Source: Macrostomum hystrix
Taxonomy: Eukaryota > Animalia > Platyhelminthes
Length of the DNA: 64,000 bases
Direction of reading: 5' to 3'
NCBI GenBank assembly: GCA_950097015.1
Contig: CATNEN010000015.1
Span: forward strand, 1,178,001-1,242,000
Numbering within the stretch: the stretch's first letter is position 1; each line of letters begins with the position of its first letter. Made by a program: the position numbers and the translations under genes. Below are positions 4,671-57,813 of this stretch, piece by piece. Under the pieces are notes generated by a model. The model saw only the letters and a list, made by a program, of their open reading frames with translations, did not search any database and had not been told where the DNA came from.

Positions 4671-4673
4671 CAT

Positions 4674-4738
4674 TCGTGATGGGAGTTCGTATTCGTGATG
4701 GGAGTTCGTATTCGTGATGGGAGTTCGTATTCGTGATG
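4674..4738. repeat. Short 19-bp tandem repeat (GGGAGTTCGTATTCGTGAT x~3.5)
   Basis: Directly visible between the 29-bp array and the first TPR exon. Confidence 0.85.
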
Positions 4739-4760
4739 AGGGTATTTTGTCTGTAATCAG

Positions 4761-24026: not shown

Positions 24027-24487
24027 CCAGGTGGCCTGAGCAGGCTTTTATTTCAGAAGGGCAGAGTTCCTTACTCACAGCTAAAGAAGGACTCTCATAT
24101 GATACAGGTTTCCATTTTATTGGGCTTTCTCACAAGACGTGAGCTACTTCATTGTATTGTTCGCTAACTTCGGTTTCGAGCTGTCTTCGAAAGTCTTAAA
24201 TCTCATTAAAACAAACGGATTATTGAGCAGGGTGAGCACAGAGTTAAATATATTTTCTCCGATCTTACTGAATTAACCATGCAATATAATCAATTCACAA
24301 GTTTAATTGTGCATTCAGCAAGCAGAATAAACATGGATTTTTTCTGAATATTATTGCAGCTATTTAATTGTTTCAGATAAGGCTGGTGAATATATTGTTA
24401 CAGCACAGTGGAAATTGAGTTGCCACTGGCTGAAGCGGAGAAGTTCAGTTTTCTGCAGTCCATGGCTGATTCCTCAGCTGCTGCTGA

Positions 24488-26895
24488 TCACAGCTCCAGC
24501 AGAAGACTCACTGAGCGAAGAGTCAACACCTGGCGGAAGTTGTTGTACCATACCATGTTTGGTGTCTTTCTTTGGGGGAAGAGTCCGTTAGGATTGAGAT
24601 TGAAGTAATTGCAATCGTTGAACCACCACCCACCTGCCTGAAAAACATTCGGGCACGATATGTTGGCTCTGTCATTGTCCATGGTGGAGAAGCCTCCTCC
24701 TTTGCTCCTCTTCATAGCATCAAATCCGACACTGGACCTGTTCGTCAGCATCTCTCGGTACGTCATCTCATATTTGTTGCTGGCATCTCCAACCTGGAAC
24801 CCAGCATACTCAGCATGCAGCTCAGTCCCATCCCACAGCTTCATCTCCACTCTGAGTGTGGCACCGCCTGTGCTCAGCGAGTGGATGGCGGAGAGACCTG
24901 CGGGGTCGGACAGATGTGAATGGCCAGATTCAGCTGAAAATCTATAAATTGATTTGCTGTGAAACTGTTTGCAGGTAATAAATAATATATCGAGCTAAAA
25001 TATAATTTGAATTGTGAAAACTCTAGCCTTAAATGAAAGGCAACTGCGAGAAATTCACTATTTTATTTACTTACGCGCGCTTAGCTCATCAAGCCCTACA
25101 CTTCTCGCATCGTTTATTTATTGACAATTCTTTCAAGATGTTAACAAAAGTCAGACTTTTTTACCGTCTCAGCAGTCTAACTTGCATCACCCTCACATTA
25201 GATCCGCAATTCCCAATATTCTTAAGCCTCCAACTCCCAACACCCGGCATCTCTCGTTCAGTCCTTGAAGGCTAACGAGACTAAAATCAGCTGTCTGACC
25301 TGTCCAGAAGTCGGAGTTGTCGCCGAAGCCAGTCTCGTACTCAGTCCAGTTGCGCTGGAAGCTCACAGTCCCAGTGAGTCGCTGCTGAATCTTTACGAAG
25401 CATCTGCCGTCACGCCTGACTAGAAGCGCTTCAGTTTCAGAGATCGGACCACAGTTAGTAGTGCAGCACAGCTTGAGGCACTGCTTGAGACTTGAGCAGC
25501 TCACTGCTCTCGTGGATGGCTTCATTCGCCAGGGCAATAATTCGACACTCGATTCAACGCTGCAGTTGTCGGGTAAGAGAAAAGTCGCTCGCCATTTCGT
25601 GTGACGCCAGAAATCGGCTGGCTCCGACTCCAGCGATGATCTGAAACCAGAGGAAAGCTTACTGGCTTTAACGTAAAATAATTAAGTTACTAGCGTTTGA
25701 CATTGCTATTTGAGCTTAACAAAAGAAGTCTTAGAAAGTTCCAGTACCTCAACCCGCGGCATTGTTCCAAAGTTTGGCAATGCACAAGCAGCTGTGCAGT
25801 CTTCCAGTCTGCCGACACCATCAGTGAACCAATTAAGAAGCGAGAACTCAAGACCGAGCTCACAATGCTCTGAGCACTCCACAGTTTCATGAAGGTGACC
25901 GAGCGAGGAAACAGATCAGCCAGCTGAGACTTCACTGCTTCCAGTGTGGCCTCATCTTGCAGTACTACATCCAGCTTGAGGTAGTACATGCTACGGCTGT
26001 AGTCATACATGACTGACTCGCTGCTCAAGCTGCTGATGTTGTGGCAGAGCAGAGGCTCGATGACTAGGTAGCCCTTTTTGTCGAGTCTCTGATGCACTCG
26101 AGCAGTGCAGTTCCCGAGATTGATCGAGCGAACGAAACGCAGTGGACGACACGAGGAAATGTTGTACCGGCGTCTGTACAGTTCTGGCTCAAAGAAGATG
26201 TCATTCTTTTGCAACACATTATAGCTGAAACTGTGGCAGTCTCCGTTCGCCACAATGGATGCTGAGAGCCGCACTCGAGATAAAGCAAGTCGTGGATTTG
26301 AGCTGATGTTTGAGCTGAAGACCACATGTGGCTCGATTGATTGCAGAAATCGCATTGACGAAAATCCCTGCAGCCACGTGTCATAGGAGGCTCTGTAGGC
26401 ACTGCTGTCGCTGCCAGGGCGTTCTTTGAATCCGAGTCTCAGAGTTGCGATGGGTTCGTCAGGACTCCACAAGAGTCCAACACCAACTATTGATGAGTTG
26501 GGGTCAAACGAGAGGCTAATGTCTCTGACTGCCGCAAAACTCACAGACCTCGGTGACAGATGCCTGAGCTGACGTTGAACCTCTTCAAGCATGTTGGCAT
26601 CCCTCAGGACAACAGGCACACTCACGTACAGCTGTTGAGTGACTGGGTCGAGTCTCAGAAGCAATCTTTCAAGCCTGTCCGTCACGCACATGACCGGCTC
26701 GACTGCCAAGTGAGGACCGTCGCTCGCTCCCGTGTCGTGCACGAACAGCGCGCAGCCGTTCACATTGAGCTGGGCGACGAAGCGGAGCTTCGGTGAGCCT
26801 GTGGCTGCGCACTGTGAGACCTGGCCAGCTGCCAGCGAGCAGAGCAGCAGAGCCAGCGCTGCAGTTTCCACAACTTGCACACTGAAGGATTTCAT
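24488..26895 (-). CDS. Secreted fibrinogen-related (FReD) protein with a duplicated unknown N-terminal domain. Exons 26895-25748, 25640-25300, 24897-24488 (632 aa)
   Basis: Signal-peptide-like MKSFSVQVVETAALALLLCSLAAG; phase-consistent GT-AG introns; FBG motifs IQQRLTGTVSFQRNWTEYETGFG..DFWTG|LSAIHSL...LRVEM...FSTMDND..SC....GGWWFNDCNYFNLN. Confidence 0.85.
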
Positions 26896-27499
26896 TGCAT
26901 TGCACAGAGATTTGGTTTGAAAGCTTTCTATTTAGAGTTATGAGGTTGCAGTTTGTGCAGAGCGTGAGGCAGTCAGGACAATTCGTGTCTGAGCTACTGT
27001 TAAATACTCTCTGCTAGGCATGGGGTGATCGCTGCAGCTAGTGATGCGTTCGCAAGGACTTGGCGGATTGGTTTGTTTTCTAACCCGTGACAAAGTTCCA
27101 TTAAGTGCTCGAGTACTTTCTTCAGTCCTTGTGATTGCATATTGGTAGGCATGGCCAGAATTTAGTAAAAAATCATTAACCTTCAGCCCCACAAGGTAGC
27201 AAAGCAAAGGCAAAGCAAATAGAAGGTGAAAGAGAAAGCGAAAGCGCGAGCAGCGAGGAGGGGAAGGCGATCCGAACTCCGAAAAGAGGAGGGAGAAAGG
27301 GAAATAAGAGAGGTCGAAAAAGGCACTGCAGAAGGCACAGAAAGGCAGAGTCAGACCGCCAGTCGTCGAGGCAGCGGATGCCGTCCCCGGAGAGGCCGCT
27401 CTGGATGGCAGCGCTGGCTTCTCCTCTGCGCAGAATGTGCGTACAATGAACCGTTTATTGTAAGCGCTTTATATTAGGTAATATAGAGGCAAATATTGT

Positions 27500-28950: not shown

Positions 28951-30036
28951 ATTTGCGGGGAAAGGTATTAAGTTAATGACATAATATTTATGTAGAAAAT
29001 AATTTGATTTCCAGGAAACAGCATGAGATACCCGGGTGTAGTATGAGATTTTCAGGGGATAACATGATATTTCCGGTGCATAGCATTAGGATTCAATGTG
29101 GGAGCATGAATTATCCAGGGAAGCATGAAATAACGAGGGAAAAGTATGAATTATCGACGGAAAAGCATGACTTTTCAAAGTGACAGTGTACCAGGGCTTA
29201 CTTCTTTTTACTTAATTTTACTGAATGCCACCAAAGTTGTACAGGTGGAAATTAATATTTCTACTACAGTTGACTCACATTAACTGGTGGACCTTAAAAG
29301 GGCCGTTTATATATGCACGAGCGGTAATTAGGCAACTGTATACTTTTCCAGCCGATTAGGCGTCCCCGAGATTAGAGTTTAGCAGTTCCCTTCGATAATA
29401 TTCTTAGTATAACTTCTGAGTATAATTCTACTTATACTTCTCACTGCTATCTTCCTTTAAAATGAATAACACAATGCAAAGCTGTCGGAAATTTATCTTT
29501 TAAACACACTTAAAACTATATTTACAAACACCTCTTGAAAAACTACTTCAACTTTTAAACTCTTTAAACACTCTCCTGAAACACTTTAATACTCTTGTAC
29601 AAAGGCTTTCAGCTTTAACTCAACTCAACAATTTCAACTTCAACTCTAAAAACACACTTCGAAACACTCTTACAAACTCACTGAAACACTTCGAACACTT
29701 TCGAACTCTCTCGGACTCACTCACAGGTTATTTTTCCAGACCAAAAGTGCGGCTATTTATAGTGAGAAAAATTAACTTTTGTTTAAACGGGAGCATTTTA
29801 CATAATATTATTTATAATATGCGATTTAAAACAAAATTATTTACATACAGTATTACTTTTGATACGGTACAAAGATAAACAAATTATTATTTTTTTTGGC
29901 GCATTTTTAATTTTATTTATTTTTTTATAATTTTTATAATAGAATAACGTATATACAAGAGGCTAACTATTACAACTTTCCCTCTCTAAACAAAGAAATT
30001 TGAACGAAAAACAGAAAAAGAGTGAAAATTTCTTTT

Positions 30037-30705
30037 CTAAAAAGTACAGTTGTTCGGCAAGTCTTTAAAGTAGGGGAAATTTACTTGATTGAACAACCAG
30101 CGAAACTCGATATTCACCAATTGTCGTTGAAAAGTCCTCGAGTCGGCTTGCCGCAGGCGCTGTAGTTCTCGTCCGATTGCGGCGTAGAGGATTACAACCT
30201 CCGGCTGTGCCATCAGCTCTTTTAGCGCCCTTACCGCCGCCCATACTTGTGCTCGTTGGGGCAAGGCCTCGTCCAGCCTTAGGTAGGCTACTCTTGTTAA
30301 GTAGCGCAGAATGGCGAAGCGGAGCCGTTCGGCATGCTCCCCGTACTTCACCATCAATTCTTGATATGTCAGTTCGGTTGATGGCGGTGGCGGAGGCGGC
30401 GGCAGTGCTTCGGCAGCGGGTTGACCATGCTTAGCCGCCGGCGCAATGACGATTTGGCACGTGCTTCTGGTACCCGGCGTATTCTTAGCGTGCCTCTCGA
30501 CTGGTGATACCGCCTGGGCCGCCATTACGTCTGCTCTCCTCTTGTGGGGGTCCAGCTGTCGCACCTTAGTTGGCGAAGAAGTTCGCGGCCGCTTTCCTGC
30601 TACCGGTTGAGGCCTCGTCGGTTGTCGCTCTGGTGCTGATATTTCGGCGTCAAGATCCACTTCAGGTTCTAGAGATCGCAGTAATTCGTCCAGCTCGTTG
30701 TCCAT
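30037..30705 (-). CDS. Orphan ORF (222 aa from ATG 30705) carried by the non-autonomous LTR element
   Basis: Uninterrupted GC-rich ORF in AT-rich surroundings: Pro/basic N-half and helical C-half (ELTYQELMVKYGEHAERLRFAILRYL...). TATA and CCAAT motifs lie upstream. Confidence 0.7.
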   Translation of the reverse strand: MDNELDELLRSLEPEVDLDAEISAPERQPTRPQPVAGKRPRTSSPTKVRQLDPHKRRADVMAAQAVSPVERHAKNTPGTRSTCQIVIAPAAKHGQPAAEALPPPPPPPSTELTYQELMVKYGEHAERLRFAILRYLTRVAYLRLDEALPQRAQVWAAVRALKELMAQPEVVILYAAIGRELQRLRQADSRTFQRQLVNIEFRWLFNQVNFPYFKDLPNNCTF

Positions 30706-30768
30706 TTCTCTGCGCAAATTAGCTTTCCTTCTCAAAATTGTTGCTCCTAGATGCTGACCCTCCCTTCA

Positions 30769-32409: not shown

Positions 32410-35400
32410 CTTAACTGCTTTTCACTCTGTTTTTAATCGCTGCTTCTCTAATCCTTTCCGCTGCCACCAAAGTTGTACCACATTGGAAATTAATATTTCT
32501 ACTACAGTTGACTCACATTAACTGGTGGACCTTAAAAGGGCCGTTTTAACTTCTTAATTGGTAGCGTTTATATATGCACGAGCGGTAATTAGGCAACTGT
32601 ATACTTTTCCAGCCGATTAGGCGTCCCCGAGATTAGAGTTTAGCAGTTCCCTTCGATAATATTCTTAGTATAACTTCTGAGTATAATTCTACTTATACTT
32701 CTCACTGCTATCTTCCTTTAAAATGAATAACACAATGCAAAGCTGTCGGAAATTTATCTTTTAAACACACTTAAAACTATATTTACAAACACCTCTTGAA
32801 AAACTACTTCAACTTTTAAACTCTTTAAACACTCTCCTGAAACACTTTAATACTCTTGTACAAAGGCTTTCAGCTTTAACTCAACTCAACAATTTCAACT
32901 TCAACTCTAAAAACACACTTCGAAACACTCTTACAAACTCACTGAAACACTTCGAACACTTTCGAACTCTCTCGGACTCACTCACAGGTTATTTTTCCAG
33001 ACCAAAAGTGCGGCTATTTATAGTGAGAAAAATTAACTTTTGTTTAAACGGGAGCATTTTACATAATATTATTTATAATATGCGATTTAAAACAAAATTA
33101 TTTACATACAGTATTACTTTTGATACGGTACAAAGATAAACAAATTATTATTTTTTTTGGCGCATTTTTAATTTTATTTATTTTTTTATAATTTTTATAA
33201 TAGAATAACGTATATACAAGAGGCTAACTATTACAACAGCATGGATTATCAATGGAGTAGCACAAATTATCGATGGAGTAGCATGAATAATCAATGGGGT
33301 TGCATAATTTTTCAAGGGAAAAGCATGCATTTTCATGTGGGAAGCATCAATTATCGAGGGGGTAATATTAATTATTGATTGGTATAATAAATAATTGAGG
33401 TTAGGTATAAATTATCGAGATGAAAACATGAATTAACGGAAGGAAAACTATGAATTATACAGGGGAAGCATGATTTAGCGAGGGCAAAGCATGACTTATC
33501 GATAGGAAGTATGAATTATCAACAAAATTGTATGATTTGTAGAGAGGGTAGAATAAACATGGAGGTTGGTAGCATTTATTAACGAGGGGAAGTATGAATT
33601 AACATTTGAATTATCAACGGGGTAGCCTGAATTATCGTAGGTAAAGCATATATAAAGTTGGTAGCATAAATTTTTGAGCGGATAGCAAGATTTGTCCAGG
33701 GATAGCATGATATAACAAAGTGGTAGCATGAATTATTGAGGAGAAAGCATACCGGTCGATTATCAAAGAGAAAGCATGAAATATCGACGATGTGTCATGC
33801 ATTTTTGAAGAAAAACCATTATTATCAATTGGGTAGCTTGAATTATCTAGGGAAAAGCGTTAAATATCGAGGAGCTAGCATGAATTTTTAGGGGAAGCTG
33901 AATTATCGAGGGGAGTCATGCATTTTTTTAGGGGAAAGCATGAATTATTAATGAAAAATTATGAATTATGGAGGTGGAAACATAATTTATCAAGGGCGTG
34001 GAATGATTTATTCACTGGCTTGCACAAATTGGTTTATTGAGGGGCAGCATTATATATTGAGTAATGTTCTATCATCAACAGTTAAAAACTTAAGTACTGT
34101 TCGTGTAAGCTTTTATTTTTGGATTTTCGGCTTTTTGGGTACAGCTAACTATTAATAGTAAGAGCTATTGATTAGCTACTGTCAAAGCAAATATTTTTGT
34201 TTAATTGCTCTTCTCGCTCTGAGAAAATAATAATCTTTTTTAGCGCAGCAGCAAGTTTTTTTGATACAAAATTTTCGAGCATTTCTGTCAGCGTTTTTAG
34301 ATTCGGAAATATAAGAAAGGACTTTGAGCAAAGCTATTAGCGTAGATCATTTTAAATTTTAACCCCTTTTCAAGCATTCTTACAAGCAGTATTCAATAGG
34401 ATTAAAAACTATTAAAGATAAAATGTTATACTCGTATTCCAAACTAACAACAATTTTCCAGCATATCTGCAAGCGTAATCTGATTCAGAACTAGAAAACA
34501 TATGTTGAGCATAGCTAAAAGCGATATTATTTTTTATACTTTTTTCGATCATTTCGAGCGGTATCGATTCAAAAGCTAATGAGGACTGTTTGAGCATATG
34601 TAGCTGTTTAGCATTCTTTTATTTTCAAATCTAAAGAAAATTGTTTCGAGCATTGCTGTAATCTTTATTAGAAAACTAGGAGACAATGTTTTAATCCTAG
34701 TTAATAGCACTAATCTAAAAAAACTTTGCGTTTTTTCGTGCAGGGAAGCATTTATTGTTGTTTTGTGATGAATTTCATGAATTATGGTTGTGAAAACATG
34801 ACTTATTGAGAGTGTAGTGTATGGGGTTTGATTCCCAAAAAAGGGTAGGAGCGAGGCGGTGGATTTCTCTTTTGTTGATTATCAATGAGAGCGTGAGCTC
34901 GAAGTGTTGAAGAAAATGACGTCGATTGTGGCTCTATATTTATAGATGAAAACATGCATTTCCGGAAAATTCTGGAAAAATGCAAGAGTTATAACAAAGC
35001 TGATGCAATATAGTTTAAGTAACTTTAATATTGTAGCGCGAGATGATGTTATTTACATGTATGATATTTGATTATTGTTATTATGTGCTTTACAGATCAT
35101 TTGTTCTTAGAGTGGAAGTTTCTAGAAAAATATCGAAAAGTCAATTTGTAGTTTTACGGCGAATTTTCTGGAATGGCAAGTACGGTACGATGGAAGGTCA
35201 CGATGAGACGCTACAGTAGCATGAATTATCAGGAGGGTTGTCTAAATTATCGAGGGGAAGCATGAATTGTCGAGGGTAGAATACATTATTGAGGGGGTAG
35301 CTTGATTTATCAAAGGGGAATCATGAATTGCCGAGAGGAAGCATGAATTATCTGTGGATAGCATTTATTAACGAGGGGGGAGCATTAATCAATGAGGGGA

Positions 35401-44700: not shown

Positions 44701-47361
44701 GTAGCATGATTGTTGCAAGGTGCAGGAGCTCAATAATAGTAATAGCAATGACAGCACGGCGAGGCGAAGTGGACAACGAGAAGATAAGGCGAGATAACAA
44801 GAACTAGAACCGGACAGGACAGGACAAGCACGAGAACCAGAACGAGAACCAGGACAGACTCAGAACCAGAACCAGAACCAGTGGGGCGCGAGCGGGCCTA
44901 AAGCCCTTAGTTAAATAAGCTTAGTAAACTGCAGAACAGGGCGATCGATAACTCTAGAAACTGGCCTTAGCCAATGAGCGTGTAAGTACACTGGTCTGGG
45001 AAGACGACAATTTAAACATTAGCAAAACCAAGCTGTGGCGGCGCGATGTGCACCAACGCCTACTAACAGTAACACTCTAAGAATTACAGCTTAACCATAC
45101 GAACTGAGAAATGGATGAAAACCAGATGACATCAGTAAAACGGCTCTAGTTAGTACACACGTAAATTAGCTATGTAAATTAATACGTAAAGTAAATTGCT
45201 AGGGGCGCTCTCAACAAGTGACAACGTCACAGTGTGTTCTTCTTCCTCAAAAGGGAGTTTTGGTTGCTAGAAAAAAGTACTTGAAAATTTTTTTTAAGTA
45301 AAACTGATCATCTTTAACACGTATTGTTATAATTATCACTTAATTTTCATTTAAAAGTAGTAGAAACACTTTGCTACTAAACTTTTATGAGGCATACTTC
45401 ATTGGATAGATGATTTGTAAGCACTAGCGCTATATGCATTGGCCTGTTTATTGATACTTAAAATATACTTAAGTGGGAACATATTATGATGTCAAAAATG
45501 GGGAAGTACGACTTAAATAGAGAACATTAATAAACACAAAAAATCTTAATGGAGGGTCTGCACCTAAAGTTTAAACAGAAACTGGGATATAAAAGACATT
45601 TTGATCATGAAAAAGGAACAGGAGATCAAGTAGCACACTGATCTACTACTGAGATCAGTAGTACTATTGATTTACTAATTGGGATTTAATTAGTAAATAT
45701 TAAAATTAAAAGGACAAGTGGCATTGTTGCTTCCAATTGAAGAATTCTTTCTACGAAGCCTGGAATCTTCCTGATATTTCCGAGCATGCCTGATAAGACA
45801 GGCAAATATATTGTTATAGAACAGCGCTGAAGAGTTTGCGTGTTAATCAGACACACGAAACTCCCACTTCTAGACAATGGGGAACAATTGCCTAGGAATT
45901 TATAAAAGTCACGTGACACTTACTGCAATTGCTTCTTCTTCCTTAAGTAGTTCGTAGTCTTCTGGGTCCTTGTAATCCGGTAGTTCTTCTTCTTCTTATT
46001 CTGGTCGACCGTGAGGTTTCGAGTCTGTGTTTCTTGAGTCTTGGTAGTCTTGTCTTCTTTTGTCTTCCTGGCAGCTGCTTGAGTTTGTCTGTTGGCCAAT
46101 AAATGACGAGAGCGAATCAGATTACTTGACGGTTTCCTCGAGCTCGGAATTCACAATAGAAACGTGCGCCCTAGTGAACAATTGAAATCTCTCGTGTATA
46201 TCTCTAATAGGTCCTCCTGAAGGGCGTCTTCTTCGTTACCTCCGAAAGATAACGGATAACTCAAATCAAATCAATCAATAATCCTCTAGGAATGTATCCT
46301 AGGAAACAAGGAGGCCTTTCTCAAAAGTATCGACGATATGTGGCTCTCGTAAACTTAATTCAATTCAACAAAGACCGCTAGCGATAAATAACTCTGTCTA
46401 GTAAAGCGCTTACCACTTGTCTTTCCCTCAGAGATGAGTCCTCTTCTTCGTAGGGTGTTTTGAAGTCCGGTGGACCTCTCCGAGTCTGAATTTTTAGCTC
46501 GGATTTTCGCTTGTATTTATAGTAAAATTTTGGGGAAAAACCGGTTCTACTACCGGGTGTTTACATTGGGCATACATGTTTGCACAGTGAGGTCAGACTT
46601 GTTTGATCAGCTGCGTTTTGGGGGGTTTTCAGGTGAACATTACCATATTTGGAATATTGTGTAAATACAGGTGCAGAAACCGATGAGTCATGTTTGCTTC
46701 AAGTAAATACAGCTGTCGAGAACCAGTTCTCCGATTTCATGTCACATGACTTGCTTCAAAAATAGCGCATGACTCATTCCTAAAAATAGATTAAACATTA
46801 TAGCTAAGGTTTCCTTGTGACATTACTTTAAGTAGCGCGTTAAGTAAAAACATATTTTACAACTCTCTACAATATCTCCCTTTTTTACGAAAAAATTCGT
46901 CCCGAATTTATTGTTGACAATTAAAATTTTGGCATAAAAATTTAGGAGAATATACTTATATGTACGTATTTGTTGAAACAGTTGTGTGGTAGAATTTTAT
47001 AGATTTACAAAAACATAGTGAAACAGTGGATAATTCGATTTAAAACTTGTACCTAAAGCGTGAGAGTGAATACCATCACCGAGCAGTAGCAATAGTTACC
47101 AGCTACGAACGTATTAGTTAGTGGTAATTGTAGACAAAATTGTAATTAAGAGGCAATAGTGAATGTAAGTAGAAGAAAAGTGTTTGGATTTTTGTTCACC
47201 CATAGATCATGTTGTTTAGGTGTGTTTGGTGTTGTCGCCTTATTTTTTCCACCAGCTTGCTTATGGGCCAGAAAAGTTTTTGCAGTGGTGTGTAAGTAGT
47301 TTCTTCGGTCCGTTCCATTAGCATGAGGAAGGTGTCGAACGCCGTTGGTTCTCCTGGACTT

Positions 47362-47814
47362 TCAGCAATATTGTGGGCGAGCAGTAAGAGCCTTTGACGA
47401 TATGATTTTTAGACGCCAAGTTATTGGCCACGATTTTATGTTAATCGTTAAGTCGTTTATGCTGGCCTCCTCGCAGTTAGTTTCGTCTAGTAGGAGATCG
47501 AGGTGTATGGGCGTCATGTTGGTGATCGTTTTAGTATTGTCCAACATCTTCTCTAAACAGTCTGGACAGGAAGCGATGTTTCGTCGTGCCATTGATTGTA
47601 AGCAGCTAAAACAACTCCAATGTCGATTTTCGCACAATCGTATGTTGGGTTGTTCGTTGCATAGGACGCACCATACTCGGCTCCTGCGACACAGCGGACA
47701 TGTAGGTAGTGGGCCCTGGCTTGTGCAGTTTAGACAGACTTTATGCCCCCATTCGCATACTGGAACCAGATCTAGGCGTTCGTCGAGGCAGATGGGTCAC
47801 AACTCTCGATTCAT
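47362..47814 (-). pseudogene. Accessory double-RING protein 2, with in-frame TGA at 47799-47797 replacing the first Cys
   Basis: My translation: MNREL*PICLDERLDLVPVCEWGHKVCLNC..TCPLCRR..WCVLC..RLCENRHWSCFSC..ASCPDC, paralogous to 48122-48487. Confidence 0.82.
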
Positions 47815-47827
47815 CTGTTGAAATGTT

Positions 47828-48097
47828 TTAATAATATTCTGATTCAGAGTTATTATACTGGTATGTTTCTTGAGATGGTAGTATATATGATAGATCCTCG
47901 TTTCGCAAAATTAGTGTGGGAAGAATTGTACAGAAAATGGGACAGGGATGAAGATTCATGTCATCGACAAGATTAAACAGTTTTTGTGCAATATCATGTA
48001 TGGACAATTGTCTAAGCTCAGGGCCGTATTGCAATGAGTATCGTACGCTCGTACAATGTTTTTACGCGTTTTGTGAGCAATTCGTGGTATAGGCCAT
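47828..48097 (-). pseudogene. Small accessory ORF of unknown function with one internal TAA (48064-48062)
   Basis: ATG 48097 MAYTTNCSQNA*KHCTSVRYSLQYGPELRQ... stays in frame with the 68-aa ORF in the track. Confidence 0.45.
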
Positions 48098-48121
48098 GCT
48101 TTTAGAAGTTGAATTATCTTA

Positions 48122-48487
48122 TTAGAGGAAAAAAAGAGTATAGGTTAATGGATGAAGTTGGCAACCATAATTTGGTTTAATACGCGCAAGTTTGTTATAA
48201 ATCATGAATAGTGGGGTATTATTGCAAACAGGACATTGGAAAATGGCTCGATAGACAAACTTCTTCATGCATTGCGGACACATAAAATGTTGGTTTTGAC
48301 AGTATTGTACAGTTCGCCATGAGTTACATATCATACATTGGCGGAGATTTCCACGGCACAGAGGACAGTTTTTTAATGGTTTTTTGTAGTGTGCGAGGCT
48401 TAAGCAAGAACCGCAAACATGGTGTTTATTGACACATATACATGGTAGTTTACATGAGAATTCTGTAAGACAGACAGGACAGTCCAT
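48122..48487 (-). CDS. Accessory double-RING (C3HC4-like x2) protein 1
   Basis: CPVC..C.NKHHVCGSC..CPLC followed by CMIC..CQNQHFMCPQC..CPVC. Confidence 0.85.
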   Translation of the reverse strand: MDCPVCLTEFSCKLPCICVNKHHVCGSCLSLAHYKKPLKNCPLCRGNLRQCMICNSWRTVQYCQNQHFMCPQCMKKFVYRAIFQCPVCNNTPLFMIYNKLARIKPNYGCQLHPLTYTLFFL

Positions 48488-48645
48488 GGTAGTGTTCGCG
48501 AAAATTGTGTGGGCGTTTGCAGAGAGCAGAGGTTTAGTCGCCTTTTACGACAAGCTTGAGAAGCTGTAGTGTTATTCTTAATCCCGGTCACTACACGGGG
48601 AACAATAAACGAGTAATTTAACGAGGGCGTAGGTTATACGTATGA

Positions 48646-50328
48646 TTATTTGGTGGTGTGTTTTGTGGTTTGTGTCTCGGCATGTGCTGTTGCAATGTGC
48701 GTGTTTGTTGTTTTTGTGTGGTCTGGATTCTGTAACGTTGGAAGGAATGTAGTGTCGTTAGTGATGCGTTTTAAACGTTGAATGTGAACGTAGAACTGAG
48801 GTTGATGTGGATCCTGGATATTTGCAAGGCGTGCTGTTGTTGCGGATATCAGTCCTGTTACACGGAAAGGTCCTTTGTATTTGAAAGCATGCTTGTGCGT
48901 ATGCTGTGCCGGGTAGTGTAGGTAGACGATATCTCCTACTTGTAAGGTAGAAGCATGATTACTTGTTGTAGGTACGGTAGATTGGTTGTCGAGATTATGT
49001 TTTGCAATTTGCCATGCTAGGTGTAATTGAGAAGTGAACTTTTGTAGCGTCGTCGGCGTGTCAACATATTGAGATGGCAGTAATTTCTGGACTAATAGAT
49101 TCGGTGGTTGAAAGTCTCGAGAGAACATCAGAAAGAATGGTGTGTTCTCTGTTGAGCGATGAACTGCGCTGTTGTAGGCCATTGTCACGGATTGTATGTA
49201 AATAATCCAATCTTCAGGTTGTTTGTAAACAAAGTGTGTCAGCATTTCATGTAGATTTCTGTGAAATCTTTCGACGAGGTTTGCTTTTGGATTATATGTC
49301 GAAGTGAATATTTGTTGAATATTCAGTAGTTTGGCGGCCTGTTGAAATAACTGCGATGTGAACTGTGTACCATTGTCAGATGTTAGCGTCTTAGGAGTTC
49401 CGAATTTGCAGATAATTTCATTATAGAAGGCCATTGCAACTGTTGTCGCTGTGATGTCAGGTATCGGAATGGCAACGGCGAATTTCGAAAAAACATCCAA
49501 GGCTGTAAGAATGTAGTTGTAGTCGATAGAGTGTTGTCGAGCCGGTGGTAGTGGTCCGGTAATGTCAATTGACACTGTGTCCCATGTAGTTGTCTTCGGC
49601 ACTGATTGGAATTCAGGTTTTTGTCGTCTTCCGATTTTTGTTGAAGCACATGAGTGACATTGTGTGCAGTACTTGCGAATGTCTAAATTCATTGTTAACC
49701 AAAAATAGAACTGGGCGACTCTCTGGATTGTTTTCTTGGCGGATAAGTGTCCTGCTAATGGACTATCATGGAGTTCGTGTAGGATCGCTGAACGGAATGT
49801 GTATGGTAGGTACAGTCGCGGAATATTGTTGTACACCCAGTAGAGTGCGAGTTCTCTGAAAACTAGACTATTTTTGTGTTTTCGTAAGAATTGTTTTTCG
49901 ATTTTTGTAAGTTCATTTTCCGTTTCTTCTGTATCTTCTTGTATGGCTTTGTAAAAGGAATCGTCTTGTTGTGCTTTCAACAAGTCTTTTATGGTTGGAA
50001 TTGGATGAACTGCATTGATCTCGTATGTTCTGGACAGTGCATCAGCGGCTTTATTCATTGGCCCTGGTTTGTAAACCAGGTGAAAGTTGTAGTCCTGTAT
50101 TTTGAGGACCATTCGGATAAGTCTATTGTTCGTCTGTCCTTTTGTTTTAACAACGTGAGTCAGCGGTGCATGAACTGTGCGAATGATAGTTGGCAGTGGT
50201 GATCCATAGATGTAGTAATGGAATTGTCGAAGAGCAAACAGAACAGCTAGTAGTTCTCGTTCAGTGGATGACCATTTCGTTTCGTTTGGTCTATCGTTTG
50301 GTCTATTCGTTTGGTCTGATGTAAGCAA
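48646..50328 (-). CDS. Pol, RNase H C-part plus integrase (frameshifted from RT)
   Basis: TERELLAV, ADALSR, HDSPLAGH..CTQC, VSIDITGP, SDNGTQF, LVERFHR, GPF. The RNase H TDH motif reads TVH. Confidence 0.93.
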   Translation of the reverse strand: MLTSDQTNRPNDRPNETKWSSTERELLAVLFALRQFHYYIYGSPLPTIIRTVHAPLTHVVKTKGQTNNRLIRMVLKIQDYNFHLVYKPGPMNKAADALSRTYEINAVHPIPTIKDLLKAQQDDSFYKAIQEDTEETENELTKIEKQFLRKHKNSLVFRELALYWVYNNIPRLYLPYTFRSAILHELHDSPLAGHLSAKKTIQRVAQFYFWLTMNLDIRKYCTQCHSCASTKIGRRQKPEFQSVPKTTTWDTVSIDITGPLPPARQHSIDYNYILTALDVFSKFAVAIPIPDITATTVAMAFYNEIICKFGTPKTLTSDNGTQFTSQLFQQAAKLLNIQQIFTSTYNPKANLVERFHRNLHEMLTHFVYKQPEDWIIYIQSVTMAYNSAVHRSTENTPFFLMFSRDFQPPNLLVQKLLPSQYVDTPTTLQKFTSQLHLAWQIAKHNLDNQSTVPTTSNHASTLQVGDIVYLHYPAQHTHKHAFKYKGPFRVTGLISATTARLANIQDPHQPQFYVHIQRLKRITNDTTFLPTLQNPDHTKTTNTHIATAHAETQTTKHTTK

Positions 50329-51850
50329 TCGGTTTTTCTTTCTTTGGTTCCATTTCCTGAAGTAGTACGGCTCCTAATCCGCTTCCTGATGCGTCTGTTT
50401 CTATGATAAAAGGTTTGTGGAAGTTCGGGTGTTTGAGAAGAGCATCACTAGTTAGTTGTTGTTTGATTCTATCGAAACTTTCCTGTTGTTCCGCTTTCCA
50501 GTTGTCTTCTTTCCACTTTGGAATTTTTAGTAGTTCGTACAATGGTTTAGCCGTTTGTGCAAAGTTAGGTAGGAATTTTCGGAAATATTGTGCTAGTCCA
50601 AGGAATGACTGCAGTTTGGTAATTGACGTAGGTTTCGGGAACTTCTTGACCTTGTCGACGTTATTTGGGTCAGGTGATATGCCTCGTGATGAGACGTGAT
50701 GTCCAAGATATCGGACCGAATCTCTGCAGAATTTACATTTTGTTGGTTGCAGTTTTAGACCTTGTTGTCGGAGTAAGAAGAGAGCTTGTTCCATGACTTT
50801 TACTAGTTGTTCAAAGTTATTTCCAAAGGCAAGAATATCATCAACATAGTGAAGCAGATTTGTACATCCGGCTAGCATATAGGCTGTAAGACGGCTCATT
50901 GTTGCTGGTGAGTTGGAGATTCCCATTGGACTTCTCTGATACGCGAAAACTTCTCCTTTGTAAGTTTTGAAGGCAGTGTATTGTTTTGATTCTTCTTCAA
51001 GTTCGATTTGCCAGAATCCATGTCGTAGGTCAAATACGGTGAAGAGTGTCGCCGTATTGAGTCGTGCTAGCAGTTCTGAGATTTTTGGTAGACTTTGTTG
51101 ATCGGTGGGAATGTACTTATTTAGGACTCGGAAATCACAGACGAGTCGTCTTTCGTTTGTTTCTTTCTTTTCGACAAGAAGGCAAGGTGAAGAATAAGCT
51201 GAGACGGTACGTTTTATGATTCCTGCTTTAAGCATTTTTTCTATGATTTCATCGAAGTGTTGCTGTAGGTGTTTAGCGACTGGATATGGTTTACATTGGA
51301 TTGGTTCTTGATGAGGTAGCAGTTCAATTTTTTGCTTGATATCTCGAGCACATCCGATGTCGTAATCGTGATGACAAAAGACGTCGTTATACTTCCACAA
51401 TAGATCTTTAACTTGTGTTTTTTGTCCTTCAGTGATTGGACTTTGAGAAAGATCAATTTGTTGTAGGAATTTTTGTTTAGACATTTTTGTTGTTGTCTCT
51501 GGTTGGATGAGCATTACCGAAGCTTGTGTGTTGAGATGTCCCATGCATGTTCCTGCATAGATTTTTACTGGATGTTGATTTGGATTTATAATTTGTACTG
51601 GGATAAGGACTAGAGCCGTTGGTATTAAAACTTCTTTTGTTGTGAGGATCTTCTTTCTTGGTTCAAATATCATAGCTTCTTCGACATCGTCATGATTGGC
51701 GAGGTATGCTTTAACCCAACATGTACTTTCCGGCTGTATGAAGACATCTTGTTTAATATGTACTTTTGGTTGAAGGTGAACTTGGCTGACTAAAGGATGT
51801 TCCACATTGTCCAGTTTGAATGTTTGTTTGTTGAAATCAAATGTTAATGG
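50303..51850 (-). CDS. Pol, dUTPase-like spacer plus reverse transcriptase plus RNase H N-part
   Basis: SAYSSPCLLVEKK, RLVCDFRVLN, FDLRHGFWQI, PMGISNSP, YVDD, ETDASGSGLGAVLLQ. The frame extends upstream as PLTFDFNKQTFKL. Confidence 0.94.
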   Translation of the reverse strand, partial: PLTFDFNKQTFKLDNVEHPLVSQVHLQPKVHIKQDVFIQPESTCWVKAYLANHDDVEEAMIFEPRKKILTTKEVLIPTALVLIPVQIINPNQHPVKIYAGTCMGHLNTQASVMLIQPETTTKMSKQKFLQQIDLSQSPITEGQKTQVKDLLWKYNDVFCHHDYDIGCARDIKQKIELLPHQEPIQCKPYPVAKHLQQHFDEIIEKMLKAGIIKRTVSAYSSPCLLVEKKETNERRLVCDFRVLNKYIPTDQQSLPKISELLARLNTATLFTVFDLRHGFWQIELEEESKQYTAFKTYKGEVFAYQRSPMGISNSPATMSRLTAYMLAGCTNLLHYVDDILAFGNNFEQLVKVMEQALFLLRQQGLKLQPTKCKFCRDSVRYLGHHVSSRGISPDPNNVDKVKKFPKPTSITKLQSFLGLAQYFRKFLPNFAQTAKPLYELLKIPKWKEDNWKAEQQESFDRIKQQLTSDALLKHPNFHKPFIIETDASGSGLGAVLLQEMEPKKEKPIAYIRPNE

Positions 51851-53640
51851 TATAGATTCATTTGCCGAAATGTGTCGATTCCAATAATAACATCTTGGCT
51901 TGGAAGATGGTCAATAACAAATGCTTGTACCAGAAGTTGCTTGTTTGCAAGTTTAAGTGATATATTCACTTGTCCTAGGATATTAAGTGCATGTCCTCCG
52001 GCTCCGGCGACAGCGATTGAAGAAGGTCGCATATGAAGTTGCAATTTGTCGTAGAGTCTTTTTGTGATGACTGTGATTGAACTTCCTGAGTCGAGAAGTG
52101 CTTTACTGGGCATGTTGTTTATAAATACTTGAGCCATCGCTCTACCCATATTGGCTTGCAAGGTGCAAATGTAATTTGCTGGCCATTTTGGATCCGTTGG
52201 TAGAGGAGGAGATTTCGGCGGAGGTCTCACTGTTCTGATTTCAATTTTTGGGTAAATATTTGATCGTTCTGGTTCTGGTGCTGTTGGCAATAATTGTTTT
52301 CCTTGATCTTGTAGTATAGTTTCTTCAATTTTTTCGTTGGGTGTAGAAGTTTCTTGTTGTTTGTCAATTTGGAAAATCCGTTGTTTTGCTGGATAGGCTC
52401 GTGCTACACATCGTACTACTGTGATAAAGATCATTAGTGCAAGGTGAATCCATACAATGCATGCACTGGAGAAGATGAATCCCTGATAGTAACTTCCTTT
52501 TCCTTGGAGTAAATCGAGAAAGCTATTCGACCAAAAGGATCCTATTGCGTTATGTATGATGAATCCTGTCGAAAAGGATTGTTCTTTGTCCTGCTGGTTG
52601 TGTTGGGTAAAGAGCTTGTTCATCATCTGTCGTTGGGCAATAAAAACTTGAAGAAAATCATTAATTGTCCATCCTGGTGTGATTTCGTCAAGTTTGATGT
52701 CACCAAATGGTTTATAGGTGGTCTTATTTATCTTGAGCTGTAGGTCCGATAGTTCGTATGTTTCGTCGATAATAGCTTGCATACCAGTGATGTTTGTAAT
52801 GTGCCCAGTTGTTGAGACCTTGTGTAGTTTATTATTAATGTTGAAATAGTTGGCTGCGTCAGTGCAGGGTCTCGGGATTGCAGTTCCAACAATTATATTG
52901 TGCACAGTATCTAGAAATCCTTGAATTCGTTTCCCATTGTAGTAAGCTTCGATTCGGGGTTTATCGTAGCACGTAGTTGATGTGTTTGATGGCAAGATAT
53001 TAAAATGATGCAGTGGCACACATTTGTAAATCAACAGATGGCCAGAGATGGGGATAGCTAAAGCATCTTGAATCCCTGTGATTTTTCTGAATGTAGACGT
53101 TGGATTGACATAATAGTTTTGTCGTGCATAGTTAAGTGCAGTTTCGTGCATTCTACAAGTCAGTTGGATCAGTGATTTGTGCAAGTAGTTTAGTTCTTTA
53201 TGTAGGTTATGTTCCATTGCTGCGAGTTTTGCCGCTAGTAGTCGTGCAGAAACCATTGATGGTCTTTGTAGTTCTCTCCTTTTCCGAGCTGTGTTGGTTC
53301 TTGTTGAATAAGTAGTACCATTGACCAGTCTCATAAAGGTATCCTCATCCATATCACGTAATTCGAGCGGTATCTCTTGTTCAGACACTAGAAGTTTTTT
53401 AGAGTTCTCCTTGCAGTTAATTTGGAGATACTTGGGTTTTTTCGGAAAAGTTAGGGCAAAATCCGACGTACTCGCAAGGAAGGTATTTGACAGTAGATTT
53501 CCTTTTATTGTATGGTACTTCTGGAATTTACAATCAATATTCGGTTCAACTTTCCATGCAACGAAGTATTGTCGTTGGTATCCTGTAATCTCATAGTATG
53601 GGCTGTGTCGATGTTCAATTTGCCATCTGTAATTTTGATG
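51844..53640 (-). CDS. Envelope C-terminal part, TM helix, PTAP tail and aspartic protease (frame open from ~53640)
   Basis: Upstream of the tracked ORF the frame reads HQNYRWQ..YFVAWKVEPNIDCKF..ALTF..INC; furin-like ARKRR; NPTSTFRKITG..ALAIPISGHLLIYKC..CYDKP..GFLD..II..PC; TM YQGFIFSSACIVWIHLALMIFITVV; protease ALLDSGSSITVI...VIIGIDTF. Confidence 0.85.
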   Translation of the reverse strand, partial: HQNYRWQIEHRHSPYYEITGYQRQYFVAWKVEPNIDCKFQKYHTIKGNLLSNTFLASTSDFALTFPKKPKYLQINCKENSKKLLVSEQEIPLELRDMDEDTFMRLVNGTTYSTRTNTARKRRELQRPSMVSARLLAAKLAAMEHNLHKELNYLHKSLIQLTCRMHETALNYARQNYYVNPTSTFRKITGIQDALAIPISGHLLIYKCVPLHHFNILPSNTSTTCYDKPRIEAYYNGKRIQGFLDTVHNIIVGTAIPRPCTDAANYFNINNKLHKVSTTGHITNITGMQAIIDETYELSDLQLKINKTTYKPFGDIKLDEITPGWTINDFLQVFIAQRQMMNKLFTQHNQQDKEQSFSTGFIIHNAIGSFWSNSFLDLLQGKGSYYQGFIFSSACIVWIHLALMIFITVVRCVARAYPAKQRIFQIDKQQETSTPNEKIEETILQDQGKQLLPTAPEPERSNIYPKIEIRTVRPPPKSPPLPTDPKWPANYICTLQANMGRAMAQVFINNMPSKALLDSGSSITVITKRLYDKLQLHMRPSSIAVAGAGGHALNILGQVNISLKLANKQLLVQAFVIDHLPSQDVIIGIDTFRQMNLYH

Positions 53641-56242
53641 ATGCTTCGTTCAAGAGTTTTGCTGTTTCGCAGAACCCTGTGTTGTACTTGCAATCTTCCA
53701 TTGATAATTGTAGAGATTCCATGTTTTCAAATGGATTGTGGTAAAACAAGACTTTCCGGATTAAGTAACTGTTTGTCGTGGTGTAACGTGGCCATATGTA
53801 TTCGTTCCAATGGACATATCTACCGCTCGCACTGTTCTTGGTCCTGAAGAGTTGAGAGTTTCCAATTTTTTCATCGGCATGAAGTTCTCCATCTTTAGAA
53901 AATAATGTTTGGTTCCACTGGAGGCATTCTTCTTGTGTGACAGGCAGTGCTGTTTGCCAGAATCGGATGCGATTCCATTGGATGTACCAAACCTTTTCTA
54001 GTTCATGTTTGTCTCGGAAGCAGATAATACCATATTGCCTATGTTTCTTTGTGTTTGCTTTGTAGACATCGATCGTTAATGGAATAGGTTTTGTTTGATT
54101 AGTTTTAAAGTAACTGCACTTGATTTCCGTTGGTATTTTGTAGATGACTGGTTGGATGTTGGCATCAGTAGGGCAAATCATGGGCACTGAAGATGGTACA
54201 ACTGTCGGGAGAAGTAACATCACGATGGCTGAAAACAACCATCTTATCAGTATGTGCCGTTTCTTTTTCTTCACTTTGGTTGGTGGTGTCGGTTTATTGG
54301 TGTTTATTGAGTATCGTTGGTCTTCTGTCTCTCCAATTGGTGGAGTAAGGCGCATAGAAAAGTGCCATGGGTTGTTGCATCCTGATGGTCTGGTTTGTTG
54401 GTTATACCAGGTTGGTTGTTTCATATCGAATGTTAATGGTGTATTGAGAGTTTGCAGTACGGTACTTGTAGTATCCGTTCTCATGTCGATCCACGTTGTT
54501 GGTTCATCATAGATATGATCGTCATCATTTTCCATCGACGTATTGTAGTCACTTTTAGTCTGAGAAGATCTATCGTGCTTCGAGTAGTATGATTCGGTAT
54601 CCACTGCTTTATCGTGTCCATTCTGTCCTTCAGATGAATTGACATGGGTTATGTTTTCGTATTCGGGATCAGGTTTGTACTTGGGTGTCGAAGGCGGTGT
54701 CTCTGTCAAGTCGATGTCATCGACTAAAATTTGTAGCATGCTGATGCTTTCTTCAGACGTGTTGTGTGAATTTTTCGCACTGTGGTCCTCATTATTCCTT
54801 TCTGTGGATGTGGACAATTTATCTATGCCTTCTTTGTTTTGCAGAATTTTTGAAAGATCACTCATCGTTGGAATTTTAAATAATCCTTTGATTTGTTGTT
54901 GTAATTGTTTTCGTTCAATGTGTTGACAGGTGTTGAAGGCAACACTTTCTCTTGGCGAGGGAATCGATAATTCTTCAAACAATGAACCCATTATGCAGCT
55001 GCTGTCGTTGCTTGTGTTGTCGTTCTGTATTTCCTGTGTTGACTCATTGTTGTAGTAAAAATTGTTTTTTTCTGTATCCTCTGTTTCCTTTTGTGGCATG
55101 GGCGGCTCTTTCGAATGGTCGCTTTCGATTATAGTAATATAGGCTGCACCCTCGTTGTCCAGATGAAGGTCATTGATTTCTTGCTCCTTTTGTTTCTCAA
55201 GTTCATCAAGAACATTGACGGAAAAGTCTGGCATAAGATCTTCAATCTTGAACTTTGGCTCAATAGCTTGAGTGTATTGTCGACGGACTTGCGTTGGTTG
55301 TCTTGGAGGTGGAGGATTTCTTTGTTGACGATAAGGTACGATGGCATTAGATGGTCTGCTATCTTGTTGTCGACTATTTGTCCAATTACGGTTTGAAGGC
55401 TGTCTTGGAGGATGAGTCCAATTGGTCTGTCTATTGTCATTGTATGAACGTGGGTTGCCACGTGATCTGCAGTCTCTAGCATAATGACCGATCCTTCCAC
55501 AGGTGTAACAAGTTGATGTGTGCAAGTATCTCTGTTGTGGTTGTGGATAGGAATATCTCTGCTGCTGTGGTACAATAGCAGAAGTTTGGTGTTGCTGCAT
55601 GAGTTTGCTTAATTGTTCTGCTAGTTGTGTCGTGTCACTATTATGAGTAGTCATAAGAGGTGCGCTAGCTTCCCATTGCATTCCACAACGGAGCAATTGT
55701 TCCTCTGTGTTAATAGTTTCTCTCAGCAGTCTATCTCGCAAAGTAGGCTGTGCGTTGTTAATCACATGAAGTATTAAGCTTTGTTCCCGGTCTTCAAGAC
55801 GTTGTCTTTCTCGGGCAGCTGATTCGGCAGGTCCTATAGGTTGAGCTCCTTGATCCAATGGTGGAGGCTGATGTAATGCTTTGACGATCTTACGTATGTC
55901 ATCAACAAAGGTGAGAAAACTCTCAGTGGGACTCATTTTTCGATTATGAAGTTTATGAAGGAGTACCGATCTGTTTGTTCCACATCTTGCGAATTGTGCT
56001 CTCAGTTGGGTAACTAGAGCTTGATAATCTTGTTGTACTGCAGCTGTCAATTTTCCATAGATTTCTCGGGCTGTTCCTTGTAACAGTGGAGGTAGGAGGA
56101 GTGCTTTCTCTGCATTCTGTAATCCATATTCGCGTGAGACCAAATCAAAGTGATCAATGAATGTGTTGAAATCTTTATCCATTGTATACGTTCCGACCGT
56201 TTCCTTAATGTCACGATGGACCTGATAGTTTCTTCGTGCCAT
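53615..56242 (-). CDS. Gag (capsid-like, CCHC knuckle) fused through a long spacer and internal signal sequence to the envelope N-terminal part
   Basis: ATG 56242 MARRNYQ; FIDHFDLV..LLLPPLLQGTAREIY; CYTCGRIGHYARDC; KKKKRHILIRWLFSAIVMLLLPTVVPS/SVPMICP; GIICF..WYIQW..PVTQEECLQW..DCKYNTGFCET. Confidence 0.88.
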   Translation of the reverse strand: MARRNYQVHRDIKETVGTYTMDKDFNTFIDHFDLVSREYGLQNAEKALLLPPLLQGTAREIYGKLTAAVQQDYQALVTQLRAQFARCGTNRSVLLHKLHNRKMSPTESFLTFVDDIRKIVKALHQPPPLDQGAQPIGPAESAARERQRLEDREQSLILHVINNAQPTLRDRLLRETINTEEQLLRCGMQWEASAPLMTTHNSDTTQLAEQLSKLMQQHQTSAIVPQQQRYSYPQPQQRYLHTSTCYTCGRIGHYARDCRSRGNPRSYNDNRQTNWTHPPRQPSNRNWTNSRQQDSRPSNAIVPYRQQRNPPPPRQPTQVRRQYTQAIEPKFKIEDLMPDFSVNVLDELEKQKEQEINDLHLDNEGAAYITIIESDHSKEPPMPQKETEDTEKNNFYYNNESTQEIQNDNTSNDSSCIMGSLFEELSIPSPRESVAFNTCQHIERKQLQQQIKGLFKIPTMSDLSKILQNKEGIDKLSTSTERNNEDHSAKNSHNTSEESISMLQILVDDIDLTETPPSTPKYKPDPEYENITHVNSSEGQNGHDKAVDTESYYSKHDRSSQTKSDYNTSMENDDDHIYDEPTTWIDMRTDTTSTVLQTLNTPLTFDMKQPTWYNQQTRPSGCNNPWHFSMRLTPPIGETEDQRYSINTNKPTPPTKVKKKKRHILIRWLFSAIVMLLLPTVVPSSVPMICPTDANIQPVIYKIPTEIKCSYFKTNQTKPIPLTIDVYKANTKKHRQYGIICFRDKHELEKVWYIQWNRIRFWQTALPVTQEECLQWNQTLFSKDGELHADEKIGNSQLFRTKNSASGRYVHWNEYIWPRYTTTNSYLIRKVLFYHNPFENMESLQLSMEDCKYNTGFCETAKLLNEASSKLQMAN

Positions 56243-57813
56243 ATTCGCAACTGGGAACGGAAATAATTCAAGTTCTGGATCGATGTTCAAGGGTTCGTCC
56301 AGATTGACTTCTCTGACAAGATTTAGTGTGAATAAAAAGTGTGTGTGTGTGTGCGTGTGCGTGTGTATCAGCAAATTGAAAATGGTTTACACAGAGGAAT
56401 TATTTACTCAGGACAAGGGAGAAAAATTTATACAAAGCAGGGAACGTGTGCCGCTTTTAACGCTGAAAAGGGGTTATTGAAATGTGAGCCGGTGAGTTCA
56501 GTCGCGCGATTCCCAGGTGTGCAAACAATAGAGCGAAGTGACGCGTGTGGCTTATGTGCAAACAATATCCGGTAGGGACAGCAAAATTTTTCAGAGGGAT
56601 GACGCAACAAAATTTTTATGAATTTGTGGATCAAAGGCAATAATGATGAGTTGCAAAAATTGTTTCTTTTTACTTTTTCGTTAAAACGATTCAAGAGTTG
56701 TAACGCAAAAAAATTTAGTATCTTGGCCTGGGCTTGATTGCAGGGCCTGGGCGAGATCACCAGTTGAAGAGTTTTGCGTGTTGATCAGACACACGAAACT
56801 CCCACTTCTAGACAATGGGGAACAATTGCCTAGGAATTTATAACAGTCACGTGACACTTACTGCAATTGCTTCTTCTTCCTTAAGTAGTTCGTAGTCTTC
56901 TGGGTCCTTGTAATCCGGTAGTTCTTCTTCTTCTTATTCTGGTCGACCGTGAGGTTTCGAGTCTGTGTTTCTTGAGTCTTGGTAGTCTTGTCTTCTTTTG
57001 TCTTCCTGGCAGCTGCTTGAGTTTGTCTGTTGGCCAATAAATGACGAGAGCGAATCAGATTACTTGACGGTTTCCTCGAGCTCGGAATTCACAATAGAAA
57101 CGTGCGCCCTAATGAACAATTGAAATCTCTCTTGTGTCTCTCTAATAGGTCCTCCTGAAGGGCGTCTTCTTCGTTACCTCCGAAAGATAACGGATAACTC
57201 AAATCAAATCAATCAATAATCCTCTAGGAATGTATCCTAGGAAACAAGGAGGCCTTTCTCAAATGTATCGACGATATGTGGCTCTCGTAAACTTAATTCA
57301 ATTCAACAAGGATCGCTAGCGATAAATAACTCTGTCTAGTAAAGCGCTTACCACTTGTCTTTCCCTCAGAGATGAGTCCTCTTCTTCGTAGGGTGTTTTG
57401 AAGTCCGGTGGACCTCTCCGAGTCTGAATTTTTAGCTCGGATTTTCGCTTGTATTTATAGTAAAATTTTGGGGAAAAACCGGTTCTACTACCGGGTGTTT
57501 ACATTGGGCATACATGTTTGCACAGTGAGGTCAGACTTGTTTGATCAGCTGCGTTTTGGGGGGTTTTCAGGTGAACATTACCATATTTGGAATATTGTGT
57601 AAATACAGGTGCAGAAACCGATGAGTCATGTTTGCTTCAAGTAAATACAGCTGTCGAGAACCAGTTCTCCGATTTCATGTCAGATGACTTGCTTCAAAAA
57701 TAGCGCATGACTCATTCCTAAAAATAGATTAAACATTATAGCTAAGGTTTCCTTGTGACATTACTTTAAGTAGCGCGTTAAGTAAAAACATATTTTACAA
57801 CTCTCTACAGCGC

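Follow-up and report, generated by a model that had tools for sequence, protein, structure and literature searches.

In the planarian giant gypsy element Burro (GYPSM1), an envelope gene (env) was found in frame between gag and protease, which the passages on this element term the first such case (Arkhipova and Yushenova 2019, PMC6431247). The layout was also catalogued by Chary and Hayashi (eLife, PMC13524379), according to whose text the errantiviruses of nematodes, bryozoans and flatworms carry only gB-type env genes, in the order GAG-ENV-POL. The passages in question credit the nematode elements to Sacco 2022, list nine flatworm elements, one of them Mlig_errantivirus_2 of Macrostomum lignano with 16 copies, and describe the way in which gB-type elements are transmitted and enter cells as unknown. 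Here we describe an element of this kind from the flatworm Macrostomum hystrix. It occupies positions 45828-57809 on the minus strand, about 12 kb, of a 64,000-nucleotide stretch (assembly GCA_950097015.1, contig CATNEN010000015.1, positions 1,178,001 to 1,242,000) that is called the window hereafter and to which all coordinates refer. An earlier note on this DNA had implied that the gag-env-pol order is new; in view of the 2019 report and the catalogue, this layout is already known. Relatives of the window element encode Gag, a gB-type fusogen and Pol as one polyprotein. According to our model, to which we assign a probability of roughly 0.72, this polyprotein is predicted to thread the membrane of the endoplasmic reticulum (ER) twice, and the element likely buds as an enveloped particle.

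Env lies between gag and pol in the window element, which is a trait of the GAG-ENV-POL HSV/gB-type errantiviruses. Like Platyhelminthes_Rhabditophora_Mlig_errantivirus_2, as far as the tables of PMC13524379 characterize the latter, it combines a Ty3/gypsy pol, a gB-type env, the gag-env-pol order and the presence of multiple copies. The primer-binding site of 12 nt (56751-56762, minus strand), 2 nt inside the 5' long terminal repeat (LTR), is identical in 12/12 nt and in its distance from the LTR to that listed for Mlig_errantivirus_2, and the distance from this site to the end of pol is 8143 in the window as compared to about 8181, a value inferred from the table. The LTR-to-LTR distances differ (10937 in the window, 9727 in the table); therefore, the 3' region of the listed copy is probably shorter by about 1.2 kb, roughly the span of the RING open reading frames (ORFs) described below. 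Compared by primer-binding site and distances only, the window element likely belongs to the same family. Three short Env motifs were not found in the supplement text of PMC13524379, in which long cells are truncated.

As in Burro, env belongs to one polyprotein between gag and protease. The pertinent passages of PMC6431247 describe matches of the Burro env to mononegavirus fusion proteins and cargo linked to ubiquitination. However, Burro exceeds 30 kb and has a 4873-aa ORF with BIR, BCL2, MATH and dUTPase domains, whereas the window element measures 12 kb and has separate double-RING ORFs after the integrase. The non-canonical nematode endogenous retroviruses (Sacco et al. 2022, as cited in PMC13524379) are likewise metaviruses with env before pol and an RNA-virus-type glycoprotein, an order matched by the Globodera protein P0054 in our searches; they differ in their nematode hosts and in a distant reverse transcriptase (RT; 30% identity). 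Atlas virus, a hookworm BEL/Pao element, shares the single polyprotein including Env (2828 aa) but is, as described in the passages of PMC9094657, a belpaovirus with Env in the last position and a class II phlebovirus-like fold.

Four long frames follow one another on the minus strand of the window copy (56386-53615, 53649-51844, 51910-50303 and 50373-48646). The first of these is free of stops and encodes Gag with its CCHC zinc knuckle, then the spacer, the hydrophobic signal and the N-terminal portion of Env. The second, equally stop-free, contains the remaining Env with its match to PF24664, a furin-type RKRR site, a transmembrane segment (TM), the cytoplasmic tail and the protease. RT and the first half of RNase H are located in the third frame, the second half of RNase H and the integrase in the fourth. 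The order proposed in the earlier note (Gag-CCHC, spacer, signal, Env, TM, tail, protease, RT, RNase H, integrase) was thereby confirmed, and the Gag-to-Env and Env-to-protease junctions it had described as in frame are real, each lying within one stop-free frame. Gag, taken from the first ATG to the zinc knuckle (55469-56242; knuckle at 55510-55469), matches PF00098 (E 6e-7), with the zinc knuckles as the only matches in the PDB. The aspartic protease (51853-52143; PF13650, E 4e-10) is in frame with the C-terminal part of Env and is followed by the RT core (50693-51172; PF00078, E 5e-29), RNase H (50089-50500), whose PF17919 and PF17917 halves are split over two frames, and an integrase with zinc-binding domain, core and C-terminal part (48618-49806; PF17921, PF00665).

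By its Pfam matches, pol thus has the order protease-RT-RNase H-integrase known from Ty3/gypsy. Among the PDB matches of RT, 4ol8 ranks first (E 4.5e-52) and Ty3-G Gag-Pol second (E 5e-51), all others having E 9e-38 or weaker, a ranking that places it closer to Ty3 than to retroviruses. The Pfam scan of the element returned no match to the BEL/Pao-specific domains Peptidase_A17 and DUF5641. The assignment to Ty3/Gypsy made previously is borne out by the LTR structure, the pol order and the RT matches.

The coding region of the window copy is broken at four places, namely inside Env (~53615-53649), in the linker between protease and RT just past the protease (~51850), within RNase H (~50303-50373) and close to the C-terminal end of the integrase (~48650). 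Because of these breaks, which the earlier note does not state, the window copy is defective, and the whole chain cannot be made from it. Contigs of other runs (X1, X2, X4 and X5, read for presence only, as uncovered stretches prove nothing) that extend across the breaks in Env and RNase H show gaps in the alignment, and the breaks are therefore likely private to the window copy or its assembly. Programmed frameshifting at these sites was considered and rejected, as was a nested insertion, since the broken domains are continuous in the M. lignano protein P0009.

P0009 (PAA64473, 1914 aa) contains signal, Env, TM, protease, RT, RNase H plus integrase in one ORF and can be aligned collinearly to four frame pieces of the window, with identities of 57-72%. 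In P0011, one ORF joins Gag and spacer to signal and Env, with 60% identity to the window in Gag and 64% in the N-terminal part of Env, and P0012, P0059 and P0060 (M. lignano, 2852-2859 aa) combine Gag/CCHC, Env, protease, RT and integrase in one ORF. Judged by uninterrupted ORFs, the measure of intactness in PMC13524379, P0009 and P0012 are intact, and the window copy with its four breaks is not. The single polyprotein claimed in the earlier note is supported for the family by these five natural relatives but does not apply to the window copy itself. Among 48 matches of the Env search, a CCHC knuckle lies upstream of Env in 17 and a protease after Env in 12, and three (P0012, P0044 and P0054) extend from CCHC through integrase; one further match, P0045, belongs to BEL/Pao and has env in last position. 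Two Env-bearing relatives have two aspartic-protease-like domains per chain, which flank Env in P0026 and both follow it in P0042. In an RT tree of nine rows, calculated without reference families, the window groups with the M. lignano rows (100/99). Judged by the nearest named proteins (RT 82% identical), the host is likely to be M. lignano or a species closely related to it.

The Env portion starts with an internal signal or signal-anchor (54185-54271), in which a basic run precedes a hydrophobic stretch (54253-54197, hydropathy 2.27). The net charge is +7 before and -1 after the signal in the window, and the charge before it is positive in 13 of the 15 proteins examined. The ectodomain (52480-54184, with RKRR at 53286-53275) leads to the TM (52400-52479; hydrophobic core 52479-52423, hydropathy 2.37). 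A match to the Pfam Monjiviricetes fusion family PF24664 was obtained for the window (E 1e-6) and for 19 of the 36 rows of the Env alignment. While a single-sequence search of the PDB with the C-terminal part of Env gave no match, the profile made from the 36 rows matched herpes gB with E 4e-15. Furthermore, an AlphaFold model of the P0009 ectodomain, calculated with the two Env pieces of the window among the alignment rows (pLDDT 80.6, pTM 0.56), was matched by Foldseek to herpes gB structures (E 4e-21) and to predicted mononega-type glycoproteins of nyami-, rhabdo-like and chu-like viruses (best E 1e-24). Between window and P0009, 12/12 ectodomain cysteines and 6/6 N-glycan sequons are at matching positions by offset. 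A gB-like class III ectodomain is present between signal and TM, its fold being predicted on the sister protein P0009, and we conclude from profile and model that Env is a herpes-gB-type class III fusogen. The fusogen homology on which the earlier note had made its reading depend was found both by the profile and by the structure search. A search for Env in metagenome contigs yielded 141 pattern matches, none of which was confirmed. In the distant M. lignano family represented by P0012, residues ~1010-1215 form a mucin-like insert, rich in Thr/Ser/Pro and ~200 aa long, which interrupts the gB-type ectodomain between two furin-like sites.

The env segment might have entered the window copy as a nested insertion or by a one-off capture, which the earlier note had named as the finding that would overturn its reading. 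This was looked for in the relatives, in the joints seen in the contigs and in the base composition. Identity to the window is 82% in RT and 61-70% in Env for P0009, and 41% in RT, 28-33% in Env and 30% in Gag for P0012; across the families, Env identity declines in step with that of RT and Gag. The base composition of env is that of gag and pol. A single contig of run X2 bridges 51392-56325, and in run X1 the summed contig depth is similar across env and pol. Of the 14 joints listed, not one removes env by itself, with contigs showing presence only. The joint 48897->53777, found in runs X4 and X5, takes out most of Env together with almost all of pol and leaves Gag, spacer, signal, the start of Env, the end of the integrase and RING ORF 1; its contig depth is 15.1 and 7.3, as compared to 2-7 for the deleted part, and its product is likely a non-autonomous deletion derivative. 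Since Env divergence tracks that of Gag and Pol, the base compositions match and no listed joint removes env alone, env is, by these sequence comparisons, an old resident of the element and not a nested insert. Around the ends of the segment the longest shared word has 10 nt, and no point in support of an insertion or capture emerged. Both are contradicted by P0009, P0011 and P0012 and by the order shared with sister families and with a Globodera protein, and we consider them exceedingly improbable.

The cytoplasmic tail of Env (52144-52399, minus strand) contains the late-domain-like motifs PTAP (52287-52276) and IYPKI (52257-52243), identified by motif scan. Among 11 tails, P[TS]AP is present in 3 and [LI]YPx[LI] in 4, with 0.09 and 0.05, respectively, expected from shuffled sequences, and both motifs occur together in the tails of the window, P0009 and P0012, which represent three divergent families. 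P[TS]AP and YPx[LI] in these tails would correspond to Tsg101 and ALIX sites; as candidate budding signals they provide a lead.

Downstream of the integrase, two accessory ORFs that the earlier note does not mention are present on the minus strand. ORF 1 (48122-48487, 121 aa) contains two tandem C3HC4-like RING motifs recognized by their Cys/His spacing and has no Pfam match. ORF 2 (47362-47814) contains tandem RING-like motifs, is interrupted close to its start by a premature stop in the window copy and matches Sina_RING with E 1.8e-5, below the curated cutoff. The two are 36% identical (E 1e-15), and the C3HC4 ligand spacing occurs twice in each. Look-alikes of the RING ORFs in Atlas were viral RING-type or unnamed proteins with weak scores (0.91 or lower, low recognition), and a single-sequence model of ORF 1 (pLDDT 41) was unusable. 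Run X4 has a contig that connects ORF 1 with the end of the integrase; the lack of cover over 47256-47669 in the RING region in runs X2, X4 and X5 says nothing on variation between copies. The products of the RING ORFs are candidate accessory ubiquitin ligases. The main-text passages of PMC13524379 do not mention polyprotein, RING, late domain, accessory or in-frame, and RING or ubiquitin is not mentioned in the passages of PMC5408684 on rotifer extra ORFs. No description of RING cargo or of late domains in such elements was found in the literature searched, a search outside of which lay the figures and repository of PMC13524379, Sacco 2022 and Grohme 2018. A RING-finger exon of the host, TRAF-like and with zf-C3HC4 matches, is located elsewhere in the window (18473-19162, plus strand).

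The domain order, the one-ORF layout of the natural relatives, the class III fold and two hydrophobic segments together with their conservation were seen in the analysis, and it is from these that our model starts. Gag and spacer would stay cytosolic, and the internal signal would insert with its basic end on the cytosolic side. Signal peptidase would free the N-terminus of Env, leaving Gag anchored by the signal remnant, and in the lumen Env would be glycosylated and cut by furin at RKRR. The TM would stop transfer, and protease, RT, RNase H as well as integrase would hang from the Env tail until released by the protease; held in this way, Pol would enter the particle with no need for a Gag-Pol frameshift. 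For budding, ESCRT would be recruited by P[TS]AP and YPx[LI] in the tail, with the RING ORFs likely serving as accessory ubiquitin ligases. Signal-peptidase cut, furin cut, Pol tethering and budding are modelled on the polyproteins of enveloped RNA viruses and on retroviruses. The topology envisaged previously, with cytosolic Gag, luminal Env and cytosolic Pol, appears to fit because of the basic run before the signal and the matching cysteines and sequons.

The gag-env-pol order might be real and Env and Pol nevertheless come mostly from a message that is spliced or initiated internally, the long frame rarely being translated as one chain. The P0009 gene model indeed begins at a Met shortly before the signal, and the polar spacer between Gag and Env (54272-55468, minus strand) is poorly conserved, with 28% identity to P0011 over part of its length. 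To our knowledge, the equal amounts of Gag and Pol expected from one chain would furthermore be unusual for a retroelement. However, the spacer is in frame with Gag and Env and free of stops, while its other two frames have 34 stops in 400 codons and 12 stops in 399 codons, both spacer length differences listed in other copies (3 and 24 nt) are multiples of three, and the Gag-to-Env continuity recurs in the 17 of 48 matches given above. We therefore regard predominant expression from separate messages as unlikely. Still less probable, in our view, is an intracellular element whose Env is translated and acts only as an ER anchor for assembly, without a cell-to-cell step. The complete class III ectodomain is kept between families, together with its cysteines, its sequons and the furin-type site, none of which such an anchor would require, even though herpes gB depends on partner glycoproteins to enter cells and the text of PMC13524379 calls the way in which gB-type errantiviruses enter unknown.

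Several points weigh against the model of a membrane-threaded, budding polyprotein. Cleavage, topology, particles and fusion are proposed here from sequence and predicted structure alone, and the signal and TM segments were called from hydropathy alone. The P0009 model aligns to gB with a TM-score of just 0.40-0.48 and a root mean square deviation of 11-13 A. None of the tested motifs occurs in 5 of the 11 tails, and PPxY is absent from the window tail; moreover, the shuffle control overstates independence because the three tails that have both motifs are relatives of one another. Longer relatives of Gag-Env were not found among 2443 candidates, and no full-length ORF of the window's own family was seen. 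The RING ORFs have no Pfam match above cutoff and no homologues in the homologue search or in viral contigs. As a tentative extension of the polyprotein model, which we hold to be possible but not probable, Env and not Gag might run assembly, with its tail bearing ESCRT late domains and bringing Pol into the particle, and the double-RING ligases might assist budding or counter host silencing.

The structural marks of Metaviridae, namely TG..CA LTRs, target-site duplication, primer-binding site and polypurine tract, are all present. The 5' LTR (1045 bp) spans 56765-57809 and the 3' LTR 45828-46871, both starting with TG and ending with CA; the polypurine tract (46875-46886, minus strand) lies just before the 3' LTR, and the GCGC target-site duplication flanks the element at 57810-57813 on its 5' and at 45824-45827 on its 3' side. 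LTR alignment gave 98.9% identity, with 5 transitions, 5 transversions and 1 gap in 1045 columns, where ~99% had been estimated by eye, and a Kimura two-parameter distance of 0.0096. This copy is recently inserted, and the recent family activity claimed before is supported by the LTR identity. The element resides in a host repeat, its flanks corresponding to two adjoining parts of a second repeat copy (24376-24408 and 24412-24789). The empty site, with the flanks joined without the element (45820->57807), is present in one of the four runs, on a contig of X1.

Elsewhere in the window, an array of a 29-bp tandem repeat occupies positions 1-4800 (157 overlapping 300-nt windows, with 91-96% identity among those listed). 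At 5681-17307 (plus strand) there follow exons of a host gene for a long coiled-coil protein, the introns of which contain several minisatellites; we presume a resemblance to the nucleoporin Tpr. A 484-aa intronless ORF at 22106-23560 (plus strand) with matches to DUF3504 and tyrosine recombinases is presumably a Crypton-type transposon or a domesticated gene. Two ORFs on the minus strand are without Pfam match, one of 413 aa (25690-26931) with an N-terminal hydrophobic, signal-like stretch and one of 242 aa (30037-30765) located between direct repeats (29226-29976 and 32462-33237, 96%).

Overall, little is gained from the gene order, which has been published and catalogued for this host group of flatworms, and the remaining value of the element lies in its assembly mechanism and its RING cargo. 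If assembly led by Env were true, it would amount to a retrovirus-like particle whose assembly resembles that of an RNA-virus membrane polyprotein. Because the host is a laboratory flatworm, a recently active family with candidate budding motifs in the Env tail and with RING cargo makes the question of how gB-type elements are transmitted and enter cells approachable.

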